Counted from the first letter of the stretch, positions 371 through 9,208 are shown. The stretch: 55,684 nucleotides of DNA from Chthonomonadaceae bacterium (GCA_035650735.1 DASRGZ010000167.1:1-55684), one strand, 5' to 3'. Notes: generated from the sequence alone by a model not told the origin. Program-made: numbers and translations.

Positions 371-1165
371 TCATTTTCGCCTCTGGCCGGCACTGTATCG
401 CCAGACACGATCCTCGGATAAATCCCAGCAACATAACCGGCCAGACGCCCCTTCCACGGCCAGCGCGGCGGCATACCCATCGCCGACGCAGAGGTCTTGC
501 AGATACCAGCGCGCGGCCTCCTCTGCGCGGCCTTCCACAGCGAGAAGCTGCGCCGGAGCGTCGGCAGCGGCGGAGACCTCAAAGCGATCCAGAGGCAGGG
601 AGAGTCCCTCGCCACACGCCTTTATGTAAGCCTCCTTGCGCGTCCAGCAGGCAAAGAAGGCCGCGCGCCGCGCTTGCCGGGGCAGGGCGCGCAGCGCGGC
701 AACCTCGCCAGGAGCAAAGAAGCGCGCCGCGATCTCCTCGCAGTTTACCTCCGGGCGGATGCGCTCCACATCCACGCCGACACGCCGCGCTCGCGTTACA
801 GCGATCAGCGCCAGCCCGTGCGTGTGGGCGACGTTAAAGGCGAGCGTATCGCCGCCGCAGGCCGGGGTGAGCGCCGGCTTGCCCCAGCGTCCATAGCAAA
901 ATACCAGGTGGCGCGCTGCGATCCCGGTGTAGTCGCTCAACAGGGTTCGCAGCGCGCCACGGCAGAAGATAAAACGCAGACGGTCGCGGTCGAAGCAGTA
1001 AGCGGCGGCCCGGGCGCGCTCGTCGGCAGAGAGGATTGCCTCCAGCGTTGCCGCGAACGTTTCCACAGAGGCGGGAGAGGCGTCCGGCCAGACCCGCCAT
1101 ACGTGGATTTCCCCATCGCGCAGCGTTGGCTGCGCCGGCGGCAAGCCCCAGACATGCGCCGCCAT
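371..1165 (-). CDS. sfp: Sfp-type 4'-phosphopantetheinyl transferase
   Basis: Motifs GKP, FNVAHT, VGVDVE and FFACWTRKEAYIKACGEGL; last gene of the PKS operon. Confidence 0.93.
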   Translation of the reverse strand: MAAHVWGLPPAQPTLRDGEIHVWRVWPDASPASVETFAATLEAILSADERARAAAYCFDRDRLRFIFCRGALRTLLSDYTGIAARHLVFCYGRWGKPALTPACGGDTLAFNVAHTHGLALIAVTRARRVGVDVERIRPEVNCEEIAARFFAPGEVAALRALPRQARRAAFFACWTRKEAYIKACGEGLSLPLDRFEVSAAADAPAQLLAVEGRAEEAARWYLQDLCVGDGYAAALAVEGASGRLCCWDLSEDRVWRYSAGQRRK

Positions 1166-1169
1166 CCCG

Positions 1170-6900: not shown

Positions 6901-9208
6901 GCGGGGTGATCCCGAAGAAGTCGGCGTCGAACCCGTCCACGCGCTCCAGAAAGCTGCCCCAGCGGGCGGCGGTTTTGCCGGGCCGGGCGGGATCGGCGTC
7001 GTACCACGCCTCCTGATCCCAGCGGTCGGGCGGGACGAGGGCAACGGCGTCCACGCCGTCGGCCAGAAGCTGCCAGAACGCCTCCGGATCGTTGGCTCCG
7101 CCGGGGAAACGGCATCCCATGCCGACGATGGCGATAGGCTCCTGCCGGCCCACGCCGGAGGGCGCCGGCGCCGTCTCCGCATGGCCCGCCAGATATTGCG
7201 CCAGCAGGCGAATGGTCGGGTACTCGTAGAAGAGCGTGGGGGCGAGCTTCCTGCCGAGCCAGTTCTGCAGGTCCCCTGTCATCTCCACCGAGGCCGCCGA
7301 GTCGAGGCCGTACTGAGCGAACGTGTGATCCAGGCGGATCTCCGTTTCCGCAACGCGCAGGTACCGGGCCAGCCTTCGGGCCAGCCACCCCGCGATCTCC
7401 TGCGCGGCCGCCGGGGCGCTGCCTGATCCGGCGGCTCCCTTCCCTGCCCCTTCCCCGCCGTCATCGGCGGCCTGCTGCCAGGCTCCTGCCACATTCAGCG
7501 TCCCGGCCAGCCAAGCCGCCCGGCAGGCGGATCGCTGGATTTTGCCGCTGGTGGTCCGGGGCACGCCTCCCGGCCCGACCAGAACAATGAGATGGGCCTG
7601 AAGACCGTGCGACTCGGCCACGGCGCGGCGGATGGCTGTATAAATTTCCTCGAAATCCGAGCGCAGCGCCGTCCGCTGCAGCTCCTGCACGATGGCCAGC
7701 TGCTCCTCGCCGTCCACTTCCAGGGCGAAGGCGGCAGCGCCGTTGGGCCGCAGCGCCGGATGGCAGCGCTCCACCGTCTGCTCGATGTCCTGCGGATAGT
7801 GGTTGGCGCCGCGAATGATGAGAGTGTCCTTGAGCCGCCCGTTGAGGAAAAGCTGGCCGTCCTGCATAAAGCCCAGGTCGCCCGTGCGCAGGAAGGGGCC
7901 GGTCACGCCATCGGCCAGGTAGGCTTGAAAGGTCTGGCGCGTCTCCTCCGGGCGCTGCCAGTAGCCCTGCGCCACGCTGGGCCCCTGCACCCAGATCTCG
8001 CCGATCTGGCCGGGCGCGCACAACTGCCGGGTCTCCGGGTCCACGATCAGCGTCCGCTGATCGGGCAGCGCACTGCCGCATCCGACGATCCGCCGCGCGC
8101 CGTCGGCGTCCTGAGCAGGCACGGCGCGCCGTTGCTCCAGGGCCGCGCTCTCAAAAGCGCCGACCGTGGGCGCAGCCTCCTGACACCCGATGGAAACCAC
8201 CAGCGTCGCCTCGGCCAGGCCGTAGCATGGGTTGAACGCCTCCGGGCGGAAGCCGCAGGGGCGATACGCCTCCGCAAAGCGCTCCAGGGTTTCGGCCCGC
8301 ACCGGCTCGGCCCCGTTAAAGGCCAGGTTCCAGCAACTTAGATCCAGCCCCACGCGCTCCTCAGGCCGGATCTTCTGGACGCAGAGATCGTAGGCGAAGT
8401 TCGGGGCGCCGCTCGTGGTGCCCCGATACTGGGAGATGGCTTCCAGCCAGCGCAGCGGCCTCTGGATGAAGGCAGCCGGGGAGAAGAAGACATAGGGGAT
8501 GCCGACGTAGAGGGCGTGGAGCATCATCCCGATCAGGCCCATGTCGTGAAACAGAGGCAGCCAGCCCACCAGCACCGAATCGGGCGTGGTGCGCAGCCCT
8601 CGATGCACGTGCTCCACGTTATGCATCAGGTTGCCGTGGCTGACCATGACCCCTTTGGGCGTCGCCGTCGAGCCGGAGGTATATTGCAGGAAGGCGACGG
8701 TTTCGGCGGCAATCGTGGGCGCTTGCCAGGCGTCGGCAGCCTCCTGCGGCAGAGTATCTACCGCGATCCAGCGCAGCCGCGCCAGGCCGGGAATGTCGGC
8801 CTGCATTCCCTGGACGCGGGCGAGAATGTCGGAGGTTGTCAGCACGACCGCCGCCCCGGCATCGCCGGCAATCGCCTGCAGCCGCTCCCAGCTACGGTCA
8901 TGCGGGCTGCGGCGGGGTTTGGGCGGATAGGCGGTGACGCTGATGGCCCCGGCATAGAGGCAGCCAGCAAAGGCGCGAATATAGTCTAGCCCTGAGGGAA
9001 AAAGCAGCAGCACGCGGTCGCCCGCCCGGCAGACCTGCTGCAAGGCCCCTGCAATGGCGCGGGCCCCGGCATCGAGCTGCGCGTAGTTAATTGTCAGCGC
9101 CTCCCCCTCGCCATCGGCCAGAAAACGGAAGGCGATTCGCTCCGCTTGCCGGTCGCCGCGCGAGCGAAGGATCTCTACCATATGTTGCATGTCACTCTCC
9201 ATCAACAT
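3920..9208 (-). CDS. Type I PKS with FAAL-ACP-KS-AT-ACP domains (no KR/DH/ER/TE)
   Basis: FAAL: FLQYTSGSTATPKGV, WLPLFHDMGLIG, YGLAEATL, RTGDLGF. ACP1: GLDSAA. KS: DTACSSS, HGTGT, KTNLGH. AT: GHSMG, YAFHS. ACP2: GLDSLM. ATG at 9208 is preferred over TTG at 9217 on RBS spacing. Confidence 0.93.
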   Translation of the reverse strand: MLMESDMQHMVEILRSRGDRQAERIAFRFLADGEGEALTINYAQLDAGARAIAGALQQVCRAGDRVLLLFPSGLDYIRAFAGCLYAGAISVTAYPPKPRRSPHDRSWERLQAIAGDAGAAVVLTTSDILARVQGMQADIPGLARLRWIAVDTLPQEAADAWQAPTIAAETVAFLQYTSGSTATPKGVMVSHGNLMHNVEHVHRGLRTTPDSVLVGWLPLFHDMGLIGMMLHALYVGIPYVFFSPAAFIQRPLRWLEAISQYRGTTSGAPNFAYDLCVQKIRPEERVGLDLSCWNLAFNGAEPVRAETLERFAEAYRPCGFRPEAFNPCYGLAEATLVVSIGCQEAAPTVGAFESAALEQRRAVPAQDADGARRIVGCGSALPDQRTLIVDPETRQLCAPGQIGEIWVQGPSVAQGYWQRPEETRQTFQAYLADGVTGPFLRTGDLGFMQDGQLFLNGRLKDTLIIRGANHYPQDIEQTVERCHPALRPNGAAAFALEVDGEEQLAIVQELQRTALRSDFEEIYTAIRRAVAESHGLQAHLIVLVGPGGVPRTTSGKIQRSACRAAWLAGTLNVAGAWQQAADDGGEGAGKGAAGSGSAPAAAQEIAGWLARRLARYLRVAETEIRLDHTFAQYGLDSAASVEMTGDLQNWLGRKLAPTLFYEYPTIRLLAQYLAGHAETAPAPSGVGRQEPIAIVGMGCRFPGGANDPEAFWQLLADGVDAVALVPPDRWDQEAWYDADPARPGKTAARWGSFLERVDGFDADFFGITPREAQRMDPQQRLLLEVAWEALEDAGLRLEALRQGLTGVYVGAYNSDYFWMQLADPEGVDPYTSAGCAHSILANRLSYFLDLRGPSLTVDTACSSSLVAVHLACQGLRGGECRVAFAGAVNLILSPLSALVTGKTLTMAADGRCKAFDARADGIVRGEGCGVIVLKRLSDALADGDRVLAVIHGSAVNQDGRTNGLTAPNGLSQQAVIRQALAAAGIAPAQVGYVEAHGTGTPLGDPIEMGALQAVYGRADHDAAPCFVGSVKTNLGHLEAAAGLAGLIKTVLSLQRGLIPPHLHFQRWNPHIAVKESQFVVPRQCTPWPQGSHPRYAGVSSFGFGGTNAHLILGEPPAVQPAAPEAEEAGPYLLPLSAASAQALQQRAEEMHHYLLSATAGNDLRALCHTAGVRRNHLRHRVAVVGESKEALAAKLAAFAGRSAEREAPADGARPKVAFVFGGQGPQWAGMGLELMRRETVFRRILEECEAVYRAETGRSLLAEIAREEAQSRLNQTEIAQPALFAVQAALAGLLRHWGVEPDAVVGHSMGEVAAAYCAGVFSLPDAMRLIIRRAQVMAQSAGPGRMAAVGAGADEVMRLLGEREGVEIAALNSPDAATLSGEAAAVEAAVQALRERRVRCQFLPGHYAFHSEQMEALRQDLLAALSPLRPQSEAVPFYSTVTGQCLPGHCLDADYWFGNLRQTVRFAPAIQALIADGYRTFVEISPQPALTHYIQQGLEQPQIEGTALPGMRRGKEGHALLAAVADLYTQGQPIAWDRIYPAGRPISLPCYPFQRQRYWLPAPAASHSAPPSPAAYAANARPIQSAPPSPTQAVVRTASPPPPARPKPKSPAFALPTAPEERLAALEQYVRERVLQALGRAPSESLDPNVPLSSVGLDSLMVVELKSLVERELSVAVPTDLLLSGPSIAQVALWLRDQLAEGNLAGTPAGMPAKMPTGTLAVTSAPPAQAAVPLTPEAVAGLSDEEVDRLLKLMLKGKGTSK

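Follow-up and report, generated by a model that had tools for sequence, protein, structure and literature searches.

A three-gene cassette with a non-reducing polyketide synthase module and a transaminase–reductase fusion, predicted to convert fatty acids into long-chain amines in a Chthonomonadaceae bacterium

The stretch examined here (hereafter, the window) comprises 55,684 bases from the start of contig C167 in the 6.5-Mb, 97.6%-complete genome of an uncultured Chthonomonadaceae soil bacterium (G000). At the contig end, it carries a cassette of three tightly coupled, co-directional open reading frames (ORFs) that fill positions 371–9217 of the minus strand. They encode a single-module type I polyketide synthase (PKS), a fusion of a class-III transaminase (TA) with an acyl-ACP reductase (AAR)-type thioester reductase (TR), and a 4'-phosphopantetheinyl transferase (PPTase). 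The five PKS domains, namely a fatty-acid-AMP ligase (FAAL), a ketosynthase (KS) and an acyltransferase (AT) together with two acyl carrier proteins (ACP1 and ACP2), both domains of the TA-TR fusion and the PPTase are all present with intact catalytic residues. We consider it highly probable that the cassette produces a primary amine from a fatty acid, with an ACP-bound thioester and an aldehyde as intermediates. The complete chain that the co-linearity of the three genes suggests, from a fatty acid to a 1-aminoalkan-3-one, has, in our judgement, about an even chance of being correct. The parts are of known kinds; their combination, in which a non-reducing single PKS module feeds an AAR-type reductase-transaminase, is rare and undescribed, and we found no characterised cluster in the literature that joins FAAL-ACP-KS-AT-ACP to TA-TR.

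Pfam searches of the cassette proteins (reporting threshold E<=0.01) resolved the PKS into FAAL-ACP1-KS-AT-ACP2. Its N-terminal part matches the AMP-binding family (residues 20–420, 2e-66) and a DIP2-like C-terminal subdomain (463–576, 5.5e-15), and the NCBIfam models that it matches best describe fatty-acid-AMP ligases (FadD32, 4.4e-140; PRK05850, 1.3e-138), all these matches staying under the curated cut-offs. The PP-binding family matches two stretches of the protein, and KS-AT linker families were also detected. The phenylalanine of the YAFH motif in the AT domain is what we take to be the mark of a malonyl-type enzyme. At the same threshold, the PKS has no match to ketoreductase (KR), dehydratase (DH), enoylreductase (ER), thioesterase (TE) or SDR-type (short-chain dehydrogenase/reductase) reductase (R) families, nor to PF00155, the class I/II aminotransferase family of the alpha-oxoamine synthase type, and the 118-residue, Pro/Ala-rich interval between AT and ACP2 is too short for a KR. 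With C864, H999, H1039, S1311 and S1662 in place and no reductive domain, the protein has the composition of a minimal non-reducing type I module. It departs from the arrangement of TamA in that ACP1-KS-AT (about residues 590–1615) stands between the FAAL and ACP2. The original prediction, made from the DNA alone, had described a FAAL-ACP-KS-AT-ACP protein lacking KR and TE, and both this description and its coordinates are correct. It had also proposed that the PKS gene is translationally coupled to a TA-reductase fusion and followed by a PPTase gene, which agrees with the overlap of the PKS stop codon TAA and the TA-TR ATG as TAATG, and with the gap of only 4 nt (1166–1169) between the TGA of the TA-TR gene and the ATG of the PPTase gene.

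The first half of the second protein is a class-III transaminase whose pyridoxal phosphate (PLP)-binding Lys297 is invariant in two alignments of relatives, A1 (14 sequences) and A3 (6 sequences). The second half shows similarity to PigE's N-terminal reductase domain (PDB 4ppm, 6.9e-26; 5.2e-103 for the whole protein) and to cyanobacterial acyl-ACP reductase (6jzq, 3.9e-15; TIGR04058, 6.5e-20). Its Cys850, in the motif YACMAET, was aligned by HMMER with Cys294 of AAR and Cys296 of PigE and is likewise invariant in A1 and A3. The fusion scores 571.7 bits against the NCBIfam PigE model, whose cut-off is 850. Confidence in its structure model is moderate (mean pLDDT 74.9), and a Foldseek comparison of the whole model with the PDB gave only transaminase folds among the 48 matches listed, including YgjG and the TA domain of PigE. 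From these sequence relationships we assign the fusion to the TamH/KecF/PigE family. The third protein is an Sfp-type PPTase, with matches to ACPS (PF01648, 4.4e-21) and AASDHPPT_N (PF22624, 3.5e-06) and the motifs GVDVE at residue 130 and WTRKEAYIK at residue 174; its match to the HetI model (6.5e-58, 195.8 bits) falls below the 370-bit equivalog cut-off.

Table 1. Features of the cassette, in window coordinates
Feature	Position	Strand	Details
FAAL-ACP1-KS-AT-ACP2 single-module type I PKS	3920..9217	-	ORF of 1765 aa from TTG 9217
FAAL-type adenylation domain	7490..9160	-	aa 20-576; core motif TSGSTATPKG at aa 180
ACP1	7190..7387	-	aa 611-676; PP-binding; phosphopantetheine Ser640 in GLDS
Ketosynthase	6017..7141	-	aa 693-1067 (1.9e-94 / 3.9e-46); Cys864 (DTACSS), His999 (HGTGT), His1039 (NLGH)
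Acyltransferase	4634..5557	-	aa 1221-1528 (4.9e-79); Ser1311 in GHSMG, YAFH at 1410-1413
ACP2	4103..4330	-	about aa 1630-1705 (Pfam 1647-1703); Ser1662 in GLDS
Conserved PKS C-terminal tail (LSDEEVDRLL...)	3923..3985	-	conserved in window, G407, P0126 and P0128; candidate docking element
TA-TR fusion	1170..3920	-	ORF of 916 aa
TA-TR N-terminal extension	3786..3920	-	aa 1-45; helix 11-23 and flexible linker; candidate docking helix
Class-III (omega) transaminase domain	2535..3722	-	aa 67-462; Aminotran_3 7.7e-92; PLP lysine Lys297
AAR-type thioester reductase domain	1173..2408	-	aa 505-916; GAAGSIG 668-674 (GxxGxxG), catalytic Cys850
Sfp/HetI-type 4'-phosphopantetheinyl transferase	371..1165	-	ORF of 264 aa; Pfam, NCBIfam, motifs

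We propose that these proteins would act in sequence. The PPTase would prime both ACPs, and the FAAL would adenylate a free fatty acid and load it onto ACP1. The AT would place a malonyl unit on ACP2, and the KS would then form a 3-oxoacyl thioester on this second carrier through one unreduced extension. ACP2 may be tethered to the TA-TR fusion by the C-terminal tail of the PKS and the N-terminal helix of its partner, so that the chain could be handed to Cys850 of the reductase and released by NAD(P)H-dependent reduction as a 3-oxo-aldehyde. The fused PLP-dependent transaminase would finally convert this aldehyde into a primary amine, the 1-aminoalkan-3-one.

The suggested tether comes from the termini of the two large proteins. 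A motif L[SDN]D.EV.R.L, preceded by a variable linker, ends not only the PKS but also the FAAL-ACP protein of a second genome of the same genus (G407) and the metagenomic PKS relatives P0126 and P0128. The extension of about 45 residues that precedes the TA core is found in P0002, P0005–P0008 and P0023 with a conserved LS.E.KRALLA.LLQ-like helix, and is absent in stand-alone TA-TRs of about 875 aa, which begin directly at the TA core. In the structure model, the helix at residues 11–23 is of low confidence and residues 24–44 have pLDDT<50. The PKS tail and the TA-TR helix look like a matched docking pair, and we regard them as candidates for this role.

The nearest experimentally studied logic is that of tambjamine biosynthesis. 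TamA (ANL-ACP) and TamH (TA-TR) convert a C12 acid into a C12 amine in one pot; the aldehyde appears if the amine donor is omitted, and the TR requires an ACP-bound thioester (PMC9594044). Among TA-TR fusions of the TamH/KecF type, only TamH acting with TamA has been demonstrated to carry out both this reduction and the transamination of the resulting aldehyde (PMC9594044). Like the cassette, the Pseudoalteromonas tunicata pair PtTamA and PtTamH, which makes the tail of tambjamine YP1, combines an adenylation-ACP loader with an N-terminal class-III TA and a C-terminal AAR-type TR, and by its published description PtTamH shares the GxxGxxG motif and catalytic Cys of our fusion (PMC9594044). In the cassette, by contrast, ACP1-KS-AT intervenes between the FAAL and the carrier protein that feeds the TA-TR, which would make the chain two carbons longer and 3-oxo; its docking-like termini and the lack of bipyrrole or condensing-enzyme genes are further differences. 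By Pfam, neither bipyrrole (MBC) genes nor a condensing enzyme of the PigC/TamQ type occur among the 31 non-cassette frames of the window and seven ORFs beyond its start, the genome as a whole not having been searched for each Pig/Tam family; the earlier remark that pyrrole-pathway genes are missing thus holds for the window and 9 kb beyond its first base. The TamA/TamH-like logic put forward in the original prediction is supported by the family matches of the TA-TR, the FAAL-ACP loading part, the two-protein form in G407 and the single intact KS-AT without a reductive domain. Its account of the reductase needs revision: membership of the TamH family stands, the domain is of the AAR (Cys-thioester) type and not an SDR-type R domain, and the closest precedent for a keto-bearing polyketide is KecF, not only TamH. 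The product named there, a 1-amino-3-oxoalkane, and its suggested role as a sphingoid-like lipid or an alkaloid precursor are predictions drawn from co-linearity.

KecF, a TA fused to an AAR-like domain, has been proposed to reduce a keto-retaining ACP-bound polyketide and then transaminate it during koreenceine biosynthesis (PMC6498172), and transaminase activity has been reported for PpKTFusion and three thermophilic homologues, which have an AAR-like domain (PMC10829540). These Pseudomonas proteins resemble our fusion in domain composition and, as proposed, in offloading a keto-bearing ACP-polyketide (PMC6498172, PMC10829540). The koreenceine system is of type II, with a discrete ACP, pairs of KS and chain-length factor (CLF) and the reductases KecG/H, and makes two extensions to yield a tetrahydropyridine, whereas the cassette has one type I module and its own FAAL loader. 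With a single extension, no six-membered ring would close here, unlike in koreenceine, and the TA-TR has as neighbours only one type I module and a PPTase, so that the locus is not a koreenceine-type cluster. A different release is found in RedL, whose domain order is A-ACP-KS-AT-ACP-oxoamine synthase. In this enzyme of undecylprodiginine biosynthesis, as predicted for the window, the fatty acyl chain on the first ACP undergoes one KS-AT extension to the second ACP, the resulting beta-ketomyristoyl thioester is left unreduced and a PLP domain offloads it (PMC11188435); RedL does so by decarboxylative condensation with glycine, leading to a pyrroline, whereas the cassette would use NAD(P)H reduction followed by transamination. 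PigE (PDB 4ppm) has homologous TR and TA domains, with a catalytic Cys aligned with ours, and reduces a keto-bearing thioester and transaminates the keto-aldehyde, but its domain order is TR then TA, its substrate comes from PigD chemistry and not from a PKS module, and its product cyclises to a pyrroline (PMC8341465). Actinobacterial polyketide alkaloids, too, are released reductively from type I PKSs and then transaminated at the aldehyde stage, there through an SDR-type R domain inside a multi-module PKS and a separate monofunctional TA, in contrast with the single module and the AAR-type Cys reductase fused to the TA in the window (PMC10829540); Streptomyces similarly uses separate TabE and TabA (bioRxiv 10.1101/2025.08.11.669332).

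A natural counterpart of the cassette lacks the PKS module. Among 68 genomes of the order, the fused TA-TR occurs in two, this genome and G407. Contig C445 of G407 has the same gene order, with a FAAL-ACP protein of 757 aa, a TA-TR (protein P0005) and a PPTase, at 71% (FAAL), 75% (TA-TR) and 57% (PPTase) identity to the window; tblastn found no KS or AT at this locus. The ACP and tail of the G407 protein align at 48% with residues 1616–1761 of our PKS (the linker preceding ACP2, ACP2 itself and the tail), so that ACP2 corresponds to the ACP kept in the short form, whereas ACP1 is not matched by the G407 ACP at E<=1e-3. In its layout, the window protein is thus the G407 protein with some 1000 residues, comprising ACP1-KS-AT and a linker, placed in between. 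As predicted from its genes, the G407 cassette is a plain fatty-acid-to-amine system of TamA/TamH logic with an added PPTase. Its flanks, which encode a GGDEF-HD protein and also an M48 peptidase, are wholly unlike those of the window, which suggests that the cassette is a self-contained unit.

Two metagenomic proteins, P0126 (1723 aa; 58% identical, query coverage 99%) and P0128 (1717 aa; 57% identical), share the five-domain architecture of the PKS. Their identity by domain is 65% for the FAAL, 71–73% for the KS, 51–54% for the AT and 40–50% for ACP2 plus tail, with the catalytic motifs kept. A metagenome scan with the TR domain did not recover the contigs of P0126/P0007 or of P0128, while recovering a contig identical to our locus (L115, see below); that P0126 and P0007 are each reported from a 21,311-long contig of the Joint Genome Institute (JGI) does no more than suggest their pairing. 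A tree of 30 FAAL sequences unites the window with G407, P0126 and P0128 at an SH-aLRT support of 100, G407 being nested within this clade, and a TA-TR tree of 38 sequences recovers ((window,G407) 93,(P0006,P0007) 100) 99. Under either topology, two gains of homologous modules at one junction would be less parsimonious than one loss, and ACP1-KS-AT was thus probably lost secondarily in G407. On a broader scale, the cassette builds on a simpler and far more widespread FAAL-ACP plus TA-TR module for fatty amines.

Several observations weigh against the formation of a 1-aminoalkan-3-one. The eight runs listed for the locus include no RNA run. The short form in G407 shows that this lineage of TA-TRs also acts, or once acted, on a plain acyl-ACP; the reductase is therefore not evidently specialised for beta-keto substrates. 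A free primary beta-aminoketone is chemically labile, and the isolable product may consequently differ through elimination, condensation or reduction by unlinked enzymes. Acceptance of a 3-oxoacyl thioester is not documented for any published TA-TR, the activity of KecF itself being only proposed (PMC6498172, PMC10829540). Finally, the 3-oxo group might be reduced in trans, by the fatty acid synthase (FAS) enzymes FabG/FabZ/FabI or by an unlinked reductase, before or after release, yielding a saturated or 3-hydroxy primary amine of C(n+2). This we regard as unlikely, despite the facts that FAS reductases serve dedicated carrier proteins in the Red pathway, where they reduce RedQ-bound intermediates (PMC11188435), and that a gene for an Fe-type alcohol dehydrogenase lies 3.5 kb downstream of the cassette on the same strand (L115:15602–16756). 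Many metagenomic PKS plus TA-TR fusions do possess full reducing loops, so that saturated chain-extended amines may be a common output of the family. No reductase, however, belongs to the three-gene unit, which moves as such between neighbourhoods; ACPs embedded in type I proteins are seldom served by FAS enzymes; and a module of about 1000 aa would be a costly way of adding two carbons when the FAAL could simply choose a longer acid.

The module might also be bypassed or inactive, the cassette then making a plain fatty amine as TamA/TamH and G407 would do. G407 retains intact FAAL-ACP, TA-TR and PPTase frames without any module, and what it shares with the window, ACP2 and the tail, are the parts that the TA-TR would recognise. 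Yet the window retains the KS Cys-His-His, the active-site Ser of the AT and the serines of both ACPs, the 51–73% identity of the module in P0126 and P0128 argues for selection on its function, and the FAAL would need to load ACP2 across the entire module, which together make a bypass quite improbable. Two rounds of extension, to a 3,5-dioxoacyl chain whose amine would cyclise onto C5 to give a koreenceine-like 2-alkyl-dihydropyridone or tetrahydropyridine-type alkaloid, find a parallel in the tetrahydropyridine alkaloids tied to KecF-type fusions and in the spontaneous cyclisation of 5-keto amines (PMC6498172). Nothing in the sequence points to iteration, a layout with two ACPs suits a single loading followed by a single extension, and the type II KS/CLF pairs and ketoreductases of koreenceine are absent, so we hold this outcome to be very improbable. 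A last scenario concerns the site of amination: the transaminase might aminate the 3-oxo carbon, either while the chain is carrier-bound or once it has been released, so that a 3-amino aldehyde would form and go on to a 1,3-diamine or a 3-amino alcohol. In its favour, the transaminases of microcystin and iturin biosynthesis are integrated class-III domains that aminate beta-ketoacyl thioesters, and omega-transaminases often take ketones as well as aldehydes. Microcystins and iturins are named among the pathways with thiotemplate-associated transaminases (PMC10829540). In TamH, by contrast, as proposed also for PigE and KecF, reduction comes first and the aldehyde is then aminated, probably being channelled from one fused domain to the other (PMC9594044, PMC8341465), and PigE, given a keto-aldehyde substrate, does not aminate the ketone; amination at C3 is accordingly, to us, the most doubtful of these outcomes.

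If 1-aminoalkan-3-ones are indeed made, they would be latent electrophiles, able to lose ammonia to give alkyl vinyl ketones or to self-condense into N-heterocycles. A much bolder extrapolation, which we put forward as a rather unlikely one, is that the cassette defines a new class of bacterial lipids, the long-chain beta-aminoketones, in which gain or loss of the PKS module between genomes of one genus switches the product between a reactive warhead and an inert fatty amine, and the docking termini form a portable offloading pair. Matched termini would then allow the acid-to-amine step to be transplanted to other PKS modules. Natural substrates of TA-TR fusions are known only for the pigment and koreenceine pathways; here, a compact three-gene system would have its substrate set by a single non-reducing module, with the module-free cassette of G407 as a natural control from the same genus. 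TA-TR fusions are already under development as acid-to-amine biocatalysts (PMC9594044, PMC10829540).

The wider TA-TR family is large: of 8000 candidates that were scored, 3690 proteins reached E<=0.001. FAAL-ACP-TA-TR is found as a single polypeptide in 11 of the 120 listed. A KS occurs in 18 of the 67 longer relatives, including a Nocardia protein (P0280) that unites KS, AT, DH, KR, ACP and TA families and a metagenomic series (P0291–P0303, P0297 among them) with fully reducing modules fused to TA-TR; none of the 67 combines a non-reducing FAAL-KS-AT-ACP with TA-TR in one chain. Since these KS-bearing relatives are common in metagenomes and we found none characterised in the literature, amine-terminated polyketide lipids may be an overlooked class of products. 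Other relatives have different partners: in P0304–P0311 and P0290 (Nocardia and metagenomes) the TA-TR is fused to PEP-utilising/PPDK_N domains, presumably the folds of the PigC/TamQ condensing enzymes, and in P0246 and P0249 FAAL-ACP-TA-TR is joined to a class I/II aminotransferase domain.

Searches of genomes and contigs gave a sparser picture. A genome-contig search with the full TA-TR alignment, using TA-derived patterns, returned 80 loci that were mostly plain aminotransferases, full TA-TRs being limited to L005, L006 and L010. Of 401 sampled genomes from the phylum, only the genome studied here has the fusion, the 363 other matches corresponding to a distant stand-alone paralogue. Such paralogues of 360–400 aa account for nearly all of the 364 matching genomes; our genome has its own, an AAR-like protein of 385 aa with a Shikimate_DH fold (G000:C82:11488–12594; L132:3513–4670) that adjoins genes for a GNAT protein and a PhyH dioxygenase. 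Two metagenome-assembled genomes of Bacillota have a distant stand-alone TA-TR amid housekeeping genes. None of 301 Acidobacteriota genomes (the phylum of G620) matched at E<=1e-90, a threshold that may be over-strict, and two of 201 Myxococcota genomes (the phylum of G415) matched at 1e-70. No FAAL or PKS gene was found in the fetched flanks of either myxobacterial TA-TR (L130, about 12 kb upstream and 5.5 kb downstream; L131, about 1 kb and 8.4 kb). In both (L130:10468–15684 and L131:966–4766) the TA-TR gene is followed by one for a FemAB-like/GNAT protein, and in one of them a cytochrome P450 gene precedes it, a context that suggests a different use of the amine, possibly through N-acylation.

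The cassette itself is well supported as a genomic feature. The length of the open frames and family E-values down to 1e-94 exclude a chance origin of the ORFs. In the PKS frame, the first ATG lies at 9208, the end given in the earlier description, with GGGGA 9 nt upstream, and it is likely the real start instead of the TTG at 9217. A Logan contig of 12,083 nt spans positions 1–9517 of the window with 0 differences, and a run from a second study (2024, mine metagenome) covers 1–6877 and 6857–9517, also with 0 differences; as these independent assemblies span the PKS gene without differences, it is not an assembly chimera. The JGI metagenome contig L115 (58 kb) is 100% identical over the TR part and all eight domain pieces. 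Composition does not point to recent horizontal transfer, since the GC content of the cluster (0.67–0.71 versus 0.61–0.65) is raised while its GC content at third codon positions (0.75–0.86) equals that of its neighbours (0.76–0.86). An Rfam scan of window positions 1–12000 gave no match.

The window and L115, which extends 9 kb past the first base of the window, contain no further PKS, KR, TE or cyclase gene, and the 97.6%-complete genome has no other type I KS, only two FabF/B-like frames of 31–33% identity. On the PKS side, a 900-bp spacer separates the cassette from genes for ATP sulfurylase and sulfite reductase (sulfate assimilation) on the opposite strand. Beyond the PPTase gene, L115 encodes, in this order, a 703-aa TIR/AAA_35 protein, the Fe-type alcohol dehydrogenase mentioned above, a 767-aa protein of no known family and a CHAT-domain protein. 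The 703-aa protein (L115:12169–14280, 88 bp downstream of the PPTase gene on the same strand; window positions 1–282 of the minus strand are its N-terminus) has a weak cyclase-like match in addition to TIR_2 and AAA_35, and its only PADLOC matches are weak ones, to a TIR-bearing protein of an Argonaute system and to PDC-S01.

The spacer upstream of the PKS gene holds a short dispersed repeat (window 9480–9660), with a Logan depth of 170–930 versus 13–20 around it, at which contigs break. It has at least 54 matches of 70–100% identity in its own genome, on many contigs (40 of 556 first-look candidates scored), and looks like an element of the MITE (miniature inverted-repeat transposable element) or REP (repetitive extragenic palindromic) type. 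Further into the window, two large adjoining frames of 562 and 434 aa (13659–16648, minus strand) have no Pfam match at E<=0.001. The stretch 42000–49100 has a GC skew of -0.23 to -0.37 and contains a Mu-type portal gene (47769–49052, 2.4e-73), a weak match to a phage cement protein and several frames of no known family, and is probably a prophage or its remnant. It is followed by HlyD and OEP efflux genes at 50938–54332.

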